Assembly: GCA_028697455.1 (NCBI GenBank)
Contig: JAQVEZ010000002.1
Location: 89,921-153,920, forward strand
Reading direction: 5' to 3'
From: Minisyncoccota bacterium
GTDB lineage: Bacteria; Patescibacteriota; Minisyncoccia; Phycocordibacterales; UBA1006
DNA: 64,000 nucleotides
The position numbers were made by a program, and so were the translations under genes. The notes beneath the pieces are model-generated. The model made no database searches, had not been told where the DNA came from, and saw only the letters and a list, made by a program, of their open reading frames with translations. Positions 5,762 to 28,718 of this stretch are shown piece after piece; the stretch's first letter is position 1, and the number at the start of each line of letters is the position of its first letter.

Positions 5762-6862
5762 ATGAAAATAGAAGCTCACTTAGAAAAAATTAAAGATGCT
5801 ATCTCTCGAATACAAAAAGTATCAGCAAAGAATATTAGTCTTCCTATTCTTGAAAATGTCCTTATAACATCTGGTAATAATACTCTTGTTTTAAGGACAA
5901 CGAATCTTCATGTTGGGGTTGAGATAACGGTACCAGTAAAGGTCATTGAAAAAGGGGAGGCGTTGGTTAAGCTTGAAGTCTTTAATGCCATTATTAATAA
6001 TTTAGGAAATGAAGAAGTTGTTATTTTTGAAGTTATTGATAACATACTAAAAATTACAACAGAAAAATCAGAAATGAGTATTAATCTTTTTCCTGTTGAT
6101 GACTTTCCAACACTTCCAAAAAAAGAAAATGAAGTTGAGATTAAACTTCCTCTCCCACTTTTTCTTGATGGAATACGATCGGTTATTTACGCTGCGTCAA
6201 CATCTGATATAAAACCTGAAATATCGAGTGTATATATTTATAGCGATAACAACGAAGTTATCTTTGTTTCAACAGATTCATTTCGGCTTGCAGAAAAACG
6301 AGTTGTTTTTGAAGGAAATGCTGATTTTCCAGGAATTATTATCCCTGTAAAAAATATCAATGAGTTTGTAAAAATCTTTTCTGGAATTGACGAAGAAGTA
6401 AGTGTTTTTATAGGAAAAAATCAATTTTTTGTGCAATCAGAAAATATTTTCTTTACTTCACGTTTAATCGATGGAAATTATCCAGATTACAAACAAATTA
6501 TTCCAAAAGAATCAAAAACAGAGTTTGTACTTCTCAAAGAAGAGCTTGTTCAGTCATTACGACTTGTAAATATCTTTTCAGATAGTTTTAATCAAATACT
6601 CATTAAAACAAAAAATAAAGACGGAAAAGTTGAGATTTTTTCTCGAAATACTGATGTTGGGGAAAATGAAACAGCCATAGACGCGGCAATAAAAGGCGAT
6701 GATATTGATGTGTATCTAAACCATAAATATCTTACTGATGTTTTTCCTGTTATTGGAAGTGATAGTATGAGTTTTTCATTTCTTGATAAAAACAAAGCAG
6801 CTGTTGTGCGATCAGTGGGAGATCCTTCATTTTTGTATTTGATTATGCCAATGAATCGATAA
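5762..6862 (+). CDS. dnaN: DNA polymerase III beta sliding clamp
   Basis: 366 aa, directly downstream of dnaA, with a three-domain clamp-like length. Confidence 0.9.
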   Translation: MKIEAHLEKIKDAISRIQKVSAKNISLPILENVLITSGNNTLVLRTTNLHVGVEITVPVKVIEKGEALVKLEVFNAIINNLGNEEVVIFEVIDNILKITTEKSEMSINLFPVDDFPTLPKKENEVEIKLPLPLFLDGIRSVIYAASTSDIKPEISSVYIYSDNNEVIFVSTDSFRLAEKRVVFEGNADFPGIIIPVKNINEFVKIFSGIDEEVSVFIGKNQFFVQSENIFFTSRLIDGNYPDYKQIIPKESKTEFVLLKEELVQSLRLVNIFSDSFNQILIKTKNKDGKVEIFSRNTDVGENETAIDAAIKGDDIDVYLNHKYLTDVFPVIGSDSMSFSFLDKNKAAVVRSVGDPSFLYLIMPMNR

Positions 6863-24735: not shown

Positions 24736-27090
24736 ATGTCTTCTCGTAAGGAAAAAATCGTTCTTCTTGACGCTCACGCTATTATCCACAGGGCTTATCA
24801 CGCACTCCCTGGTTTTTCAACGAGGACCGGTATGCCAACAGGGGCTATTTTTGGCTTTGGGTCAATGATTCTGAGAATTATTGGCGATCTCAAGCCAGAC
24901 TATGTTATTGCGTGTTATGACCTTCCAGGGAAGACCTTTCGTCACGAAGCTTTTGATGAGTATAAGGGAACGAGAGGAGAAACTGATGATTCTCTCAAAT
25001 TACAATTTGATGCGACACGAGAGATGTGCGAAGCTCTTGATATTCCTATATACGACGCAGAAGGCTTTGAAGCAGATGATATCTTGGGGACCATCAGCGC
25101 AAAACTCAAGAGTTCTAATATCGACGTTGTCATTGCTTCTGGAGATATGGATACCTTACAACTGGTTGATGGTGAGAAGGTTCAGGTTTTTACTCTCAAG
25201 AAAGGACTCAACGATACGGTTGTCTATGACGAAAAGGCTGTTCGTGAGCGTTTTGGTTTTGCCCCAATTTCTATTGTTGATTTTAAAGCTCTTCGAGGAG
25301 ATGCTTCTGATAACATTCCAGGGATTAAGGGGATAGGAGAAAAGGCAGCAACAATCGCTATTACTCATTTTGCTACTATTGAAAACCTCTATGCAGCTCT
25401 TGAAAAAAACGAACAAGACCTTCTTGATGCAGGGCTTACCCAGAGAATGGTAACCCTTATTCGAGAAGGAAAAGAAGACGCTGAGTTTTCAAAAATTCTC
25501 GCGACGATTAGGAAAGATGCTCCCATACATTTTAAACTTCCAAAACAAAAATGGGGAGAAGCACTTTCTATGGAAAAAACTCTTGAGATTTTTGAACGCT
25601 ATGAGCTTCATAGTCTTGGAAAACGTCTTAAGACGTTGCTCCACATTGAAGATGAGAAAGAACAAATCAAAGAAAATTTTTCTGAAGAAGATTTAAAAAA
25701 ACTCGCACTCAAATTGTGGGTTCTTGATTCTGATGAGACGGATGCGTCTTTTATAGAAATCAAAGAGTACACCAAAGAAAAAACTTTTTCTCGAGCTCAA
25801 AAGAAAATAGACACAGAGCTTGCACAAGACGCAAGAGTCAAGGAAGTTTATGATTATATTGAAGAACCCCTTTTTCCCATTGTTCAACAAATGCAAAAAA
25901 CAGGCGTTGCTATTGATGAGAAGTTTTTTAAACAACTTAAATCAGAATATGCTGAGTGTTTAACAAAGCTTGAAGAGAAAATTTTTCAATTTTCTTCTGA
26001 GCCTTTTAATATTAAATCTCCAAAACAGCTTTCAAAAGTCCTTTTTGAAGATCTTGCGTTACCAACAAAGGGAATCAAAAAATTACAATCAGGATCATAT
26101 AGTACCAATGTTGACACCCTTGAAAAACTCGCAGAAGCCCATCCTATTATTCCTCTTTTGGTTGAGTTTCGTGAATTTGAGAAACTCCTTTCAACATATA
26201 TTGAAGTTATTCCCACTATGGTTGCCGAAGACAAACGTCTTCATGCTGAATTTCTTCAAAATGGAACATCTACTGGTCGTTTTTCTTCTCGAAATCCAAA
26301 TCTCCAAAACATTCCTACACGAACCGAGAATGGTCAAAAAATACGACAAGGGTTCGTTGCAGAAAAAGGCTATTCATTTATTTCTTTTGACTATTCTCAG
26401 ATCGAGTTAAGGTGTTTGGCACTCCTTTCAGGAGATAAAGCGCTCACAAAGATTTTCAAAGAACACGATGACATTCACTCGGGAGTCGCTGCGCTCATTG
26501 GTGGTGTTCCTATCAACGAAGTAACCAAAGAAATGCGAAGGAAGGCAAAGATTATAAACTTTGGAATTCTTTATGGAATGGGAATAAACTCCCTCAAGAA
26601 AGAGATGGATGTTTCAAGAGAGGAGGCCGAAAGTTTTTATTACGGGTTTTTTGACCAGTTTCCTGATGCGACAAAATATCTCGAAGATGCCAAGGAGCTT
26701 GCACGGAAACGGGGTTACACGGAAACCTTCTTTGGAAGAAGACGACAGTTTAAAAACATCAATTCAAAGCTCCCCTTTATTCGTGCAATGGCAGAGAGAA
26801 TGGCTCTCAATGCACCGATACAGGGAACTTCTGCTGATATGATTAAACTTGCTATGATCCATATCCACCAATGGCTTGAGGAGCAGCACTTACTTGAAAA
26901 TATTCGTCTCGTTCTCCAGATTCATGACGAAATTATTTATGAGGTTGAAGATAGTCTTTGTTCTCAGTTTGAACAAAAAGCACAAGAAATTATGGAAAAT
27001 GTTCTTGAAATTTCTTACAAAAAAGTAAAATCAGAAGTACCTTTTGTTGTAAAATCGAGTGTTGGTAAAAATTGGGGAGAGCTGAAGTAG
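24736..27090 (+). CDS. polA: DNA polymerase I (5'-3' exonuclease plus polymerase domains)
   Basis: FEN-like N-terminus. Polymerase motifs DYSQIELR, RRKAKIINFGILYGMG and QIHDEII. Confidence 0.93.
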   Translation: MSSRKEKIVLLDAHAIIHRAYHALPGFSTRTGMPTGAIFGFGSMILRIIGDLKPDYVIACYDLPGKTFRHEAFDEYKGTRGETDDSLKLQFDATREMCEALDIPIYDAEGFEADDILGTISAKLKSSNIDVVIASGDMDTLQLVDGEKVQVFTLKKGLNDTVVYDEKAVRERFGFAPISIVDFKALRGDASDNIPGIKGIGEKAATIAITHFATIENLYAALEKNEQDLLDAGLTQRMVTLIREGKEDAEFSKILATIRKDAPIHFKLPKQKWGEALSMEKTLEIFERYELHSLGKRLKTLLHIEDEKEQIKENFSEEDLKKLALKLWVLDSDETDASFIEIKEYTKEKTFSRAQKKIDTELAQDARVKEVYDYIEEPLFPIVQQMQKTGVAIDEKFFKQLKSEYAECLTKLEEKIFQFSSEPFNIKSPKQLSKVLFEDLALPTKGIKKLQSGSYSTNVDTLEKLAEAHPIIPLLVEFREFEKLLSTYIEVIPTMVAEDKRLHAEFLQNGTSTGRFSSRNPNLQNIPTRTENGQKIRQGFVAEKGYSFISFDYSQIELRCLALLSGDKALTKIFKEHDDIHSGVAALIGGVPINEVTKEMRRKAKIINFGILYGMGINSLKKEMDVSREEAESFYYGFFDQFPDATKYLEDAKELARKRGYTETFFGRRRQFKNINSKLPFIRAMAERMALNAPIQGTSADMIKLAMIHIHQWLEEQHLLENIRLVLQIHDEIIYEVEDSLCSQFEQKAQEIMENVLEISYKKVKSEVPFVVKSSVGKNWGELK

Positions 27091-27117: not shown

Positions 27118-27800
27118 TGTTGTATCTTTTTTTTGGAAATAAAAATAAAATAAAAAAAGAAACCGAGAGTCTTCTTCAGTCACGAACTGTTGATGTGTAT
27201 CATTTGTACGAAGAGGATTTTGTAGAGAAATCTTTTTTTGAGCTGACGTCTTTTCAGAAAGGACTTTTTGATGATACCAAGGTGTATATTATTCACGAAG
27301 CTTCTTCTCATGTTCCTCTCAAAAAAATTCTTCCCGAGTGTGCATCTTCTGAGAATATTTTTATTTTTTCAGAAGAAAAAGCCCCCAAAGCTACTCGAGA
27401 ATTGTTTGAAAAAAACAATGGAGAGATTAAGGATTTTTCAGAAAAAATCTTGCAAAAGAAAAATGAAGCTTTCAATATTTTTTCTCTTACTGATCTTTTG
27501 GGAAGGAGAGACAAAAAGGCTTTGTGGCTTTCTTTCCAAGAAGCAAAAAAAGAAAGTAGTCCAGAAGAAATTCATGGCGTCTTGTGGTGGGGACTTAAAA
27601 ATCTTTTTCTTGTAAAATCCTCTCCTACAAAAAATCCAGGAATGAGCCCCTATGTATATCAAAAGAATCTTAGTTTTGCAAAAAATTTTGAAGAGAAAGA
27701 ACTTCTTTCTCTTGCGGACACGCTCGTTCGTATGTTCCACGAGAGAGATTCGGTAAGTTCTCTTGAAATAGAGCTTGAGAAATTTATCTTAAATATATAA
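27118..27800 (+). CDS. holA: DNA polymerase III delta subunit-like (short HolA)
   Basis: MLYLFFGN N-terminus and a C-terminal IFSLTDLLGRRDKKALWL…WWGLKNLF matching the delta-subunit pattern. The ORF-track start at 27072 overlaps polA, so an internal Met is preferred. Confidence 0.5.
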
Positions 27801-27837
27801 AAACCAAACAATTCTCATTGTTTGGTTTTTATAGTAT

Positions 27838-27913
27838 TGGTCCCCCCGGTAGGGATCGAACCTACGACCGTCAGCTTAAAAGGCTGCTGCTCTACCAGCT
27901 GAGCTACAGGGGG
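27838..27913 (-). tRNA. tRNA-Lys (anticodon TTT)
   Basis: Minus-strand sequence CCCCCTGTAGCTCAGCTGGTAGAGCAGCAGCCTTTTAAGCTGACGGTCGTAGGTTCGATCCCTACCGGGGGGACCA. The cloverleaf folds, the anticodon loop is CTTTTAA, the T-loop is TTCGATC, and CCA is encoded. Confidence 0.9.
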
Positions 27914-27954
27914 AGATGTATACTCTATTTATTTAAAGTATTTTGTTACATTGT

Positions 27955-28170
27955 GCTCATTCAGCAGCCTTTTCTTAAAAGGCGTTCGGCGTGCCGTTAA
28001 GGCACCCCTCACCTCCACCAGCTGAGCTACAGGGGGAGATGAATGTTATGTATCCCTCAAAAATTTTATTTCAAAATTCTCACGAAGCAGCCTTTTCTTA
28101 AGAGGTGTTCGGCGTGCCGTTAAGGCACCCCTCACCTCTACCGACTGAGCTACAGGGGGATATCTAACAA
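27955..28170 (-). repeat. Two tandem degenerate tRNA-Lys-derived repeats (tRNA 5' half fused to GC-rich palindromes)
   Basis: The units end at 28044 and 28166 on the minus strand and repeat CCCCCTGTAGCTCAG(C/T)(T/C)GGT(G/A)GAG of the tRNA. They then diverge into GTGAGGGGTGCCTTAACGGCACGCCGAAC and the palindrome GCCTTTT-AAG/CTT-AAAAGGC. Neither has a T-arm or a 3' acceptor strand. The period is about 120-130 bp. Confidence 0.6.
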
Positions 28171-28248
28171 GAATCACTATAGAAAAAAAAGACAAGAAAG
28201 TCAATAAAAATCTTTTGTTTTGTATTCGCTGTGATAGTATTCGCCTTA

Positions 28249-28718
28249 TGAAGACATCTTTGTGGCTCCACAATATTCGAAGTGCCTATAATGTTGGTTC
28301 TCTTTTTCGAACAGCTGATGCTGTTGGAATCCAGCACATCTATCTTTCTGGCTATACACCACTCCCAATTGATCGCTTCGGACGTTATCGTTCTGATATT
28401 GCCAAAACGGCTTTGGGTTCAGAAAAAACACTTTCATGGTCACAACTTAAAAATATTCCAAAAGATATTCTTGAGCTCAAAAGTAGGGGGAATTTTTTTG
28501 TTTGCGTAGAGCAGGATAAAAAATCAATCGATATTTTTGAAGCAAGACTCCCGCAAGGAAAAGATATTATTCTTGCTGTTGGCGAAGAAACACGTGGTTT
28601 TGAGCCAGAGCTTCTTGGGCTTGCAGATATGATTGTCGAAATTCCTATGCGTGGCAAAAAAGAATCTCTTAACGTCACGGTTGCTTTTGGAATTGCTGCT
28701 TATACCTTATTAAAATAA
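28249..28718 (+). CDS. SpoU/TrmH-family RNA 2'-O-methyltransferase
   Basis: NVGSLFRTADAVGI N-terminal motif and C-terminal ESLNVTVAFGIAAY, the SPOUT knot motifs. The ORF-track start at 28215 is probably too early. Confidence 0.7.

Follow-up and report, generated by a model that had tools for sequence, protein, structure and literature searches.

The 64-kb stretch of contig JAQVEZ010000002.1 analysed here (64,000 nucleotides, hereafter the window) derives from a Minisyncoccota bacterium of the Patescibacteria, or Candidate Phyla Radiation (CPR), and includes a short region in which a tRNA gene is preceded by two partial copies of itself. The gene (27838..27913, minus strand) specifies a tRNA-Lys(UUU) with an encoded CCA end and a CCCCCUG/CGGGGGG acceptor stem, and is called both by ARAGORN and by Rfam model RF00005 (66.9 bits). 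Upstream of its start at 27913 lie two tandem units on the same strand, a proximal one (unit 2; 27914..28036) that starts at 28036 and a distal one (unit 3; 28037..28159) that starts at 28159, each opening with a copy of nucleotides (nt) 1-24 of the tRNA at 28013-28036 and 28136-28159; none of 100 shuffled sequences gave such a match. The recurrence bears out the original prediction, made from the letters of the region, that these are tandem repeats derived from the tRNA, but the spacing of 122-130 bp given there is replaced by a period of exactly 123/123 nt, and the portion copied is 24 nt long, with one to three D-loop substitutions, rather than 25 nt.

The two units, each of 123 nt, share one succession of parts on the minus strand. 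In unit 2 the tRNA copy (28036 to 28013) is followed by a hairpin module, GUGAG-GGGUGCC-UUAAC-GGCACGCC-GAAC (28012 to 27984), a copy of the anticodon loop, GCCUUUUAAG (27983 to 27974), an antisense segment, AAAAGGCUGCUG (27973 to 27962), and an unconserved spacer (27961 to 27914). Unit 3 has its tRNA copy at 28159 to 28136, an identical hairpin module at 28135 to 28107, a degenerate anticodon-loop copy, ACCUCUUAAG (28106 to 28097), an antisense segment, AAAAGGCUGCU (28096 to 28086), whose 11 nt are complementary to tRNA nt 26-36, and a spacer (28085 to 28037). The module is the 29-mer GTGAGGGGTGCCTTAACGGCACGCCGAAC (27984-28012 and 28107-28135), which occurs nowhere else in the window and has no match in shuffled sequence; it stands in for the 5′ strand of the anticodon stem. 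Next comes GCCTTTTAAG in unit 2 or ACCTCTTAAG in unit 3, and then AAAAGGCTGCTG or AAAAGGCTGCTT, with the AAAAGGCTGCTG of unit 2 forming the exact reverse complement of tRNA nt 25-36. The anticodon-loop sequence had been described as inverted; it is GCCTTTTAAG, in direct orientation, and the inverted part is AAAAGGCTGCTG. A perfect 7-bp palindrome, GCCTTTT/AAAAGGC, had been ascribed to both units and is present in the proximal one, but the distal unit has ACCTCTT/AAAAGGC with 5/7 pairs; the right arm of the palindrome runs on into the antisense match to the real tRNA. Units 2 and 3 are 92% identical over their structured 75 nt and 58% identical over the 48-nt spacers.

T arm and 3′ acceptor strand are missing from both units, ARAGORN calls neither of them a tRNA, and no Rfam 15 family matches them even at E<=10. 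The earlier statement that they cannot be tRNAs therefore stands, and the Infernal and ARAGORN runs that it proposed call tRNA-Lys only, without folding the units into complete tRNAs.

A sigma-70-like promoter, TTGACT-17-TATAGT (28176..28204, minus strand), was found by a consensus scan (10/12) and by comparison with the related contigs L004, L009 and L008; 17 nt separate the end of its -10 hexamer from unit 3, and the element lies between promoter and tRNA. On the other side of the tRNA an inverted-repeat scan and a reading of the sequence identify a 17-bp perfect hairpin followed by a T-run (27796..27833, minus strand), likely the terminator of a unit-unit-tRNA transcript and possibly a bidirectional one. 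With promoter, unit 3, unit 2, tRNA and terminator in this order, the region looks like one transcription unit, and to judge from the position of the promoter both units probably form the 5′ leader of tRNA-Lys; they may be transcribed as an RNA array, as had been suggested.

Relatives of the units at other tRNA genes

A metagenome scan with a pattern spanning the D arm and the junction, TAGCTCAGNNGGTNGAGGTGAG, yielded 26 loci, and in 23/26 the full architecture is found in front of a tRNA-Thr(UGU), tRNA-Val(UAC) or tRNA-Lys(UUU) gene; the cognate tRNA is Thr(UGU) in most, Val(UAC) in four and Lys(UUU) in L020. The plan common to the 23 loci consists of tRNA nt 1-24, GUGAG, a 6-8 bp stem, a loop, CGAAC, an anticodon-loop copy, its inverted copy, a spacer of 40-60 nt, and the real tRNA. 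The resulting hairpin of 10-12 bp starts at tRNA position 25 and is usually closed by G-C, U-A and tandem G.A/A.G pairs (GUGAG...CGAAC), which in L016, L021, L023 and L040 are swapped for fully Watson-Crick pairs; the apical loop is mostly UGGGA or CGGGG. Arrays contain one unit or two (two each in the window and L020), and the period of the units is 101-123 nt except in long variants of 195-197 nt (L016 and L022), where additional hairpins are nested in the module.

The window units share this plan in that the copy of nt 1-24 is co-oriented with the tRNA and lies between it and the promoter, with a period of 123 nt where about 100-123 nt is typical, a 10-12 bp hairpin runs from position 25 between GUGAG and CGAAC flanks, and the anticodon-loop copy is followed by an antisense segment of at least 10 nt (12 nt in unit 2 and 11 nt in unit 3). 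Units 2 and 3 score 61.7 and 59.3 bits with model R1. R2, a covariance model built from Thr and Val units only and including no Lys unit, scores them at 32.9 bits (E=4e-7) and 32.0 bits (E=8e-7), against 13.6 bits for the 5′ part of the real tRNA, so that membership in the family does not depend on circular training. No Rfam family matches the units of other loci, three scans of a viral contig collection gave 0 matches, and a scan of genome contigs, for which the pattern was too specific, turned up nothing but a chance match in G-rich Streptomyces DNA, away from any tRNA. The element is not described in the literature that we searched, which included the 224-motif paper.

The Thr loci are orthologues of one another: the succession rpsB, tsf, a 146-aa gene, the units, tRNA-Thr and a glycosyltransferase gene recurs across many species, and the EF-Ts homologues are named Kaiserbacteria, Parcubacteria and Paceibacterota. 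The rpsB-tsf/tRNA-Thr locus was also sampled through EF-Ts, independently of the motif, in three species: a unit is present in the first (L040, a 965-kb scaffold with one unit, whose EF-Ts cluster bears the name Kaiserbacteria), there is none in the second (L042-44), and the third (L045) has a downstream derivative only.

At the locus of the window, the anchor of synteny is a divergent gene for an RNA methyltransferase of the SpoU/TrmH family (28248..28718, plus strand; Pfam PF00588), which lies outside the element. Its homologues, which bear the names Pacebacteria, Parcubacteria and Minisyncoccia among others, are 156-157 aa long and cover 93% of the listed open reading frame (ORF), whose TTG start at 28215 adds 11 codons; the true start is likely the ATG at 28248, which would leave the tRNA promoter at 28176-28204 outside the coding sequence. 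The arrangement of tRNA-Lys on the minus strand and SpoU on the plus strand is conserved among relatives, while the P0011 loci are without the tRNA synteny. Units are absent from L004-L007, L009, L013, L046 and L047; where the upstream regions of such unit-less loci were read (L004, L007, L009 and L013) the same promoter stands 30-55 nt before the tRNA. The closest syntenic relative, L008, has the order PolA, hypothetical gene, tRNA-Lys and SpoU, a CCCCCUG acceptor strand, and one unit. Its hairpin, GACAUACC-UUAAU-GAUAUGUC, differs from that of the window, GGGGUGCC-UUAAC-GGCACGCC, by three compensatory pairs and by a G.G mismatch that has become C-G, with the GUGAG/CGAAC flanks and the segment GCCUUUUAAGAAAAGGCUGCUG unaltered.

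Two Logan assemblies from other samples with an identical SpoU gene both end inside a 32-nt exact repeat of units 2 and 3, position 1 of Logan contigs L001 and L002 corresponding to about 28109 of the window. Short-read assemblers break in this way at real repeats, and it is likely that such arrays are systematically missing or fragmented in short-read assemblies.

The neighbours of the element in the window are housekeeping genes (PolA, TsaE, the SpoU/TrmH methyltransferase, RuvA, RuvB, L19 and TyrRS), and there is no integrase or transposase among the 20 ORFs across about 12-38 kb of the window. An attL/attR remnant of an integrase was considered and set aside, as the original prediction had done, because it is the 5′ and not the 3′ part of the tRNA that is duplicated, the units lie 123 nt apart, and those 20 ORFs include no integrase. 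The PolA ORF (24736-27090, plus strand; 784 aa) has Pfam matches to the 5′-3′ exonuclease and polymerase domains and none to a 3′-5′ exonuclease domain, and a look-up of a neighbouring 242-aa protein returned no record. The tRNA-Lys itself begins with a C1-G72 pair (27907-27913 with 27842-27848, minus strand), as it also does in L004, L009 and L020, the four acceptor 5′ strands reading CCCCCUG, CUCCCUG, CCGCUUG and CCGCCCA. The usual pair is G1-C72, and C1-G72 is unusual in a bacterial RNase P substrate.

Several other arrangements of the same sequences were seen in the related contigs. A free-standing long hairpin module at 60-170 of L015 (plus strand) is about 4 kb from the tRNA-Thr array of that contig and next to no tRNA; it reads GUGAG-AAAGUC-UGGGA-GACUUU-CG-CAAG-(second hairpin)-GAAC-AG-CUUCUGUAAGAAG, has no Rfam match, and recurs in the same extended form inside the 195-197-nt units of L016 and L022. 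Downstream of tRNA-Thr there are 3′-type or hybrid derivatives (L021 2913-3110, L045 3226-3400 and L015 4256-4345) that combine a D arm and a hairpin of the same kind with a complete tRNA 3′ part, from anticodon loop to CCA; they have no proper 5′ acceptor strand and no ARAGORN call, and the L045 copy has a roughly 75-nt insertion in the T arm. Short minihelix mimics are also found downstream of tRNA-Thr (L015 4450-4600 and L042 3225-3262), hairpins with a 3′ arm and tail equal to the tRNA 3′ end (…ACAGRTGGCTCC), such as GCCATACCGTATC-AAAG-ATACAGGTGGC-TCCA; they resemble acceptor/T-stem minihelices. In many CPR contigs (L017, L019, L022, L023, L025 and L026) a conserved 3′ trailer, CCGAnnCGAGA, follows directly on the discriminator base of tRNA-Thr. 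Finally, the 296-kb contig L032 has, immediately before its tRNA-Phe, a 60-nt element (6488-6547, minus strand) that partially duplicates the first 24 nt of that tRNA; GUGAG and CGAAC are present, with the hairpin placed differently. It represents either a short or remote family member or a partial duplication that arose independently.

Constraint on the hairpin and the antisense segment

We examined the hairpin in two alignments, one of 23 units (A2) and one of 22 Thr and Val units including variants (A3). It is 98% paired, with changes on both sides in 7/10 pairs in A2 and 9/10 pairs in A3, and its covariation score in A2 is 0.48 against 0.155 for shuffled alignments (0/500 shuffles reach 0.48). 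When the 3′ partner is slid by 1-3 columns, the paired cells fall to 42-56% in A2 and 40-61% in A3. The tandem G.A positions become Watson-Crick pairs in four variants of A3. There are four G.U cells against one C.A cell, and this excess, together with the tandem G.A pairs, points to the sense strand as the RNA.

Constraint extends beyond the pairs. G25, U26, G27, A28 and G29 are near-invariant, as are C, G, A, A and C on the 3′ side, and a GGG loop is kept in most Thr and Val units and in the Lys units of L020. Spacers cannot be aligned even within groups, whereas GUGAG, CGAAC, the loop, the anticodon-loop copy and the antisense are kept. In L021 two adjacent units with identical spacer, anticodon-loop copy and inverted repeat have different stems and the same UGGGA loop. 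The family thus exists, and both its hairpin and its unpaired core nucleotides are under constraint.

The antisense segment has a length of 10-17 nt, running from nt 20-33 through nt 34-40 of the cognate tRNA, and is a perfect complement of that tRNA in 20/24 units. The match is reached in 0/300 shuffles for 18/20 units, both window units among them, in 3 for the second unit of L020 and in 2 for L037; it exceeds the complementarity within the unit itself (5-10 nt) in 19/20 units and equals it in L037. The segment tracks the real tRNA. Lys and Val units have CGAAC where the tRNA has CAGCA or CAGCU, yet the antisense follows the bases of the tRNA itself; in L020 a change of A29 to G in the tRNA is mirrored by U to C in the antisense; and in the distal Thr-II units the antisense fits the four U's of the tRNA in 5/6 cases (not L037), where the sense copy in the unit itself has three. 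Such tracking speaks either for functional pairing or for repeated templating from the tRNA gene.

The units would have originated in a partial tandem duplication of the tRNA gene together with an inverted copy of its anticodon region. In the Thr units GAAC and the bases that follow correspond to tRNA nt 25-38 with a C25G change, so that about 24 nt of hairpin would have been inserted after nt 24 of a duplicated 5′ half, in front of nt 25; in Lys and Val units this block instead takes the place of nt 25-29. A replication template switch yields inverted copies of the sort seen here for the anticodon region, and template switching can create hairpins and mimic compensatory change (PMC8794818).

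Interpretations of the probable leader

We favor the reading that the units are a constrained, co-transcribed and cis-acting leader RNA of a new family, to which we assign a probability of about 0.55-0.6, and its most likely role would be cis control of pre-tRNA folding and processing. Transcription would start at the promoter of the tRNA itself and include the units in the pre-tRNA, each of them a mimic of the tRNA's 5′ half with its acceptor 5′ strand and D arm. The leader would then swap strands with the nascent tRNA, the antisense pairing with tRNA nt about 24-36 and nt 1-7 of the mimic with the tRNA 3′ acceptor strand; the genuine 5′ cleavage site would be hidden from RNase P until the leader is removed or refolded, and the leader would thereby gate or throttle the maturation of its tRNA. 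As a specific mechanism, strand swapping with RNase P gating is a tentative suggestion that draws on predicted folds. We are similarly guarded about the notion of a natural 'pro-tRNA' switch, in which the leader would either hold the tRNA in an RNase-P-incompetent fold or offer the 5′ end of the mimic instead.

In RNAfold predictions the probability of the genuine acceptor stem drops from 0.91 for the isolated tRNA to 0.12 when the leader is attached, and to 0.56 when that leader is shuffled; for the D stem the three values are 0.62, 0.19 and 0.53. A swapped fold is the minimum-free-energy fold of leader plus tRNA in 6/7 loci (L022, L015, L008, L033, L040 and the window), where it is 5-14 kcal/mol below the fold in which the native cloverleaf is enforced; in it, mimic nt 1-7 pair with tRNA nt 66-72 and the antisense with nt about 24-36, and the T arm is unchanged. 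The genuine +1 is then outside any acceptor stem, so that RNase P could not mature a tRNA folded in this way. Leader structure is an established influence on this step, in that pairing of a leader with the 3′ RCCA inhibits bacterial RNase P (PMC9433436), and in E. coli its cleavage has been put under the control of designed leaders (PMC8925977). The likeness is that alternative pairing of the 5′ leader decides whether a tRNA matures, which for the present units is a proposal; the difference is that those systems use short leaders or engineered aptamers (PMC9433436, PMC8925977), whereas here there is a natural, conserved module of 75 nt that combines a half-tRNA duplicate with an antisense clamp.

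A number of considerations weigh against a leader with such a role. The promoter is a consensus match only, and such matches occur at chance frequency in this AT-rich region. Thermodynamic folding ignores the order of transcription, in which leader hairpins form first, as well as tertiary contacts and modifications of the tRNA; swapped and native folds have the same energy in L017, and RNAfold misses the cloverleaf of the window tRNA-Lys alone, making the prediction weakest for the window. Unequal crossing-over, and not selection, could be what keeps mimic nt 1-7 identical to the tRNA, the antisense could stem from a template-switch origin rather than function, and truncated or hybrid copies exist (L024, L015, L021 and L045). 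In place of the YGGGR loop of the family (UGGGA or CGGGG) the window has C-UUAAC-G, without the typical GGG; other loop variants are C-UUAAU-G in L008 and CUAAA in L015, and the window is a loop variant of the family. The element is also dispensable, being absent from 5/7 sampled SpoU/tRNA-Lys lineages and from 2/3 lineages in the unbiased tsf/tRNA-Thr sample, and an essential tRNA trapped by its own leader would require a release mechanism.

Among other explanations, the leader might persist after the RNase P cut and act in trans as a released small RNA or decoy, binding through mimic and antisense a recogniser of the tRNA's D arm or anticodon region such as a modification enzyme, an anticodon nuclease or toxin, or tRNA halves. 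The conserved anatomy fits this idea equally, the G-rich apical loop YGGGR and the tandem G.A pairs resemble a docking site for protein or RNA, tandem copies as in the window and L020 (two units each) would raise the dose, and in some loci 3′-type units and minihelix mimics of the same tRNA lie downstream. We nonetheless consider it unlikely, since no gene consistently co-occurs with the units, the Lys, Thr and Val loci having unrelated neighbors, the anticodon copy is buried in a stem in the predicted fold of the unit, and the loop sequence is unconserved in the window and L008. Near-invariant unpaired bases beside saturated spacers go unexplained if the units are neutral by-products, that is, functionless RNA left by unequal crossing-over and template-switch palindromes. 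Also against this reading are the tandem G.A and G.U pairs (four G.U against one C.A) that point to the sense RNA strand, the retention of the element at the orthologous rpsB-tsf-hyp-units-tRNA-Thr locus across many species, and the pair of different stems with the same loop and identical flanks in L021. A neutral origin does account for a copy number of 0 to 2 among close relatives, for the truncated, hybrid and 3′-type copies (L024 and the derivatives of L015, L021 and L045 located above), for a palindrome of anticodon loop and antisense that one template switch could produce in a manner that mimics compensatory change (PMC8794818), and for the 60-nt partial 5′ duplication of tRNA-Phe in the unrelated contig L032; overall we regard it as improbable. 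The recombinational debris of the original prediction finds no support in an element conserved in many CPR genomes at three kinds of tRNA gene with strong hairpin covariation, and neither does its rule that a motif unique in the genome and not transcribed would argue for inert debris, the motif being unique in the 64-kb window yet conserved elsewhere while spacers have diverged beyond alignment.

The units could also serve to multiply promoters, each supplying an extra tRNA promoter with a -35-like element in the palindrome and a -10-like element in the spacer so that arrays boost output. TTTACA, TTGTCA and TACACA occur in the anticodon-loop copy or antisense with TAnAAT-like hexamers 16-18 nt downstream at several loci, L008 has a -10-like TATTAT 10 nt before the tRNA behind a weak -35 (TATACA), and a semi-conserved GTAGAAG is present in some Thr spacers; the spacers are unconserved, however, the consensus matches are at chance level with the internal candidates of the window reaching only 8/12, and the co-varying hairpin, the nt 1-24 copy and the antisense extension are left without explanation, making this very improbable. 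Least credible to us are a miniature mobile element or an integration scar with position 24/25 of tRNA genes as its target, and the alternative of an intron-bearing or split tRNA gene. It is true that one hairpin module is found at three tRNA gene families, with identical modules at a Thr (L017) and a Val (L035) locus, and that L015 60-170 stands away from any tRNA. With that single exception, neither the window nor about 200 kb of loci from relatives contain dispersed copies; in those loci, in a comparison with repetitive extragenic palindromic (REP) sequences and miniature inverted-repeat transposable elements (MITEs), every other copy adjoins its cognate tRNA, as both window copies do. Transposase, integrase, terminal repeats and target-site duplications are all lacking, the tRNA-specific parts are tailored to each host tRNA, and the viral collection has 0 matches. 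A tRNA, including an intron-bearing one, was also rejected with RF00005, which calls only 27838-27913 and leaves the units uncalled here and at other loci, as ARAGORN does; there is no 3′ exon, and removal of the hairpin restores no anticodon stem in the one full-length hybrid, at 4256-4345 of L015.

Several structural likenesses were considered and rejected. A rod-like fold of unit 3 (P1 GUAGCU/GGCUGC, P2 AGAGGUG/CACCUCU) is unconserved, P2 being impossible in Thr units and P1 in L020, and a pseudo-acceptor stem of unit nt 1-7 with the spacer occurs in one or two units only. A T-box-like pairing of the loop (UGGG) with the tRNA NCCA end is contradicted by the absence of covariation between the loop and the discriminator base, which is U73 in Thr and A73 in Val and Lys. 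As a Shine-Dalgarno sequence GGAGGUGA is a perfect match, but it has no start codon at a usable distance and is inside helices. The unit sequence GAGGUGAG...CGAAC differs from the hammerhead core CUGANGA...GAAA at C3, U4 and A6, and no Rfam ribozyme, hammerhead or otherwise self-cleaving, matches. A K-turn would need a 3-nt bulge that is absent, and the G.A pairs are replaceable by Watson-Crick pairs. The resemblance of GAGGAAAGUCCGGGC to the consensus GAGAAAGUCYGGG of RNase P RNA CR-I is taken to be a coincidence, as the stem co-varies freely.

Known systems and implications

One of the closest known arrangements is the E. coli tyrT operon, whose tandem repeats lie in a tRNA transcription unit, are co-transcribed, and are released as rtT RNA by tRNA processing; those repeats are downstream, carry the 3′ end of tRNA-Tyr, and are confined to enterobacteria. 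The two systems are alike in having tandem repeats that each bear a fragment of the neighboring tRNA and that both probably arose by unequal crossing-over. The present units, however, are upstream and carry the 5′ 24 nt, rtT has neither a co-varying anticodon-stem hairpin nor an antisense segment, and there is no Rfam match; we therefore do not assign them to rtT-type repeats.

T-boxes bind mature tRNA in trans and control genes for aminoacyl-tRNA synthetases or amino-acid metabolism through a terminator/antiterminator with a UGGN bulge. The units resemble them as structured 5′ leaders matched to one tRNA including its cognate codon (AAA in the window, ACA in the Thr units and GUA in some Val units, as in L029). 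They differ in that the gene downstream, and the proposed object of control, is the tRNA itself, there is no terminator/antiterminator, the codon is inside an antisense of 10-17 nt, and the loop does not track the discriminator base; without a match to RF00230 or any other Rfam family, a T-box riboswitch was rejected.

Mimics of tRNA such as tmRNA, YrlA/Y RNA and viral tRNA-like structures reproduce the acceptor/T-arm half or the whole L shape. They share with the units the reuse of tRNA sequence or shape outside translation, whereas the units copy only the acceptor 5′ strand and the D arm, have no T arm, and match no Rfam family. In archaeal and eukaryotic intron-containing and split pre-tRNAs the introns are inside one gene and are cut by a splicing endonuclease. 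There is a likeness to the anticodon-intron helix in that sequence just after the anticodon loop complements the anticodon and part of the anticodon stem, but the units precede an intact tRNA, have no 3′ exon, and are found in a bacterial host.

Patescibacteria of the CPR have tiny genomes, and the regulation of their tRNA supply is poorly understood. Annotation pipelines could mistake the units for tRNA pseudogenes, and a covariance model would allow them to be annotated. If they are neutral, the loci clearly document how, in nature, tRNA genes are partly duplicated and hairpins created by template switching; if they are functional, they represent a new class of structured RNA in these bacteria. 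A functional leader with a copy of half its tRNA and an antisense to it would be, to our knowledge, the first natural case of a tRNA transcript that encodes a competitor for the tRNA's own fold. The idea lends itself to direct testing, because RNase P is known to be tuned by leader structure. Should the 'pro-tRNA' switch prove true, the maturation of tRNA-Lys, tRNA-Thr and tRNA-Val would be gated at the level of RNA folding, and the units would constitute a new class of tRNA-specific cis-regulator and a natural counterpart of engineered RNase P riboswitches.

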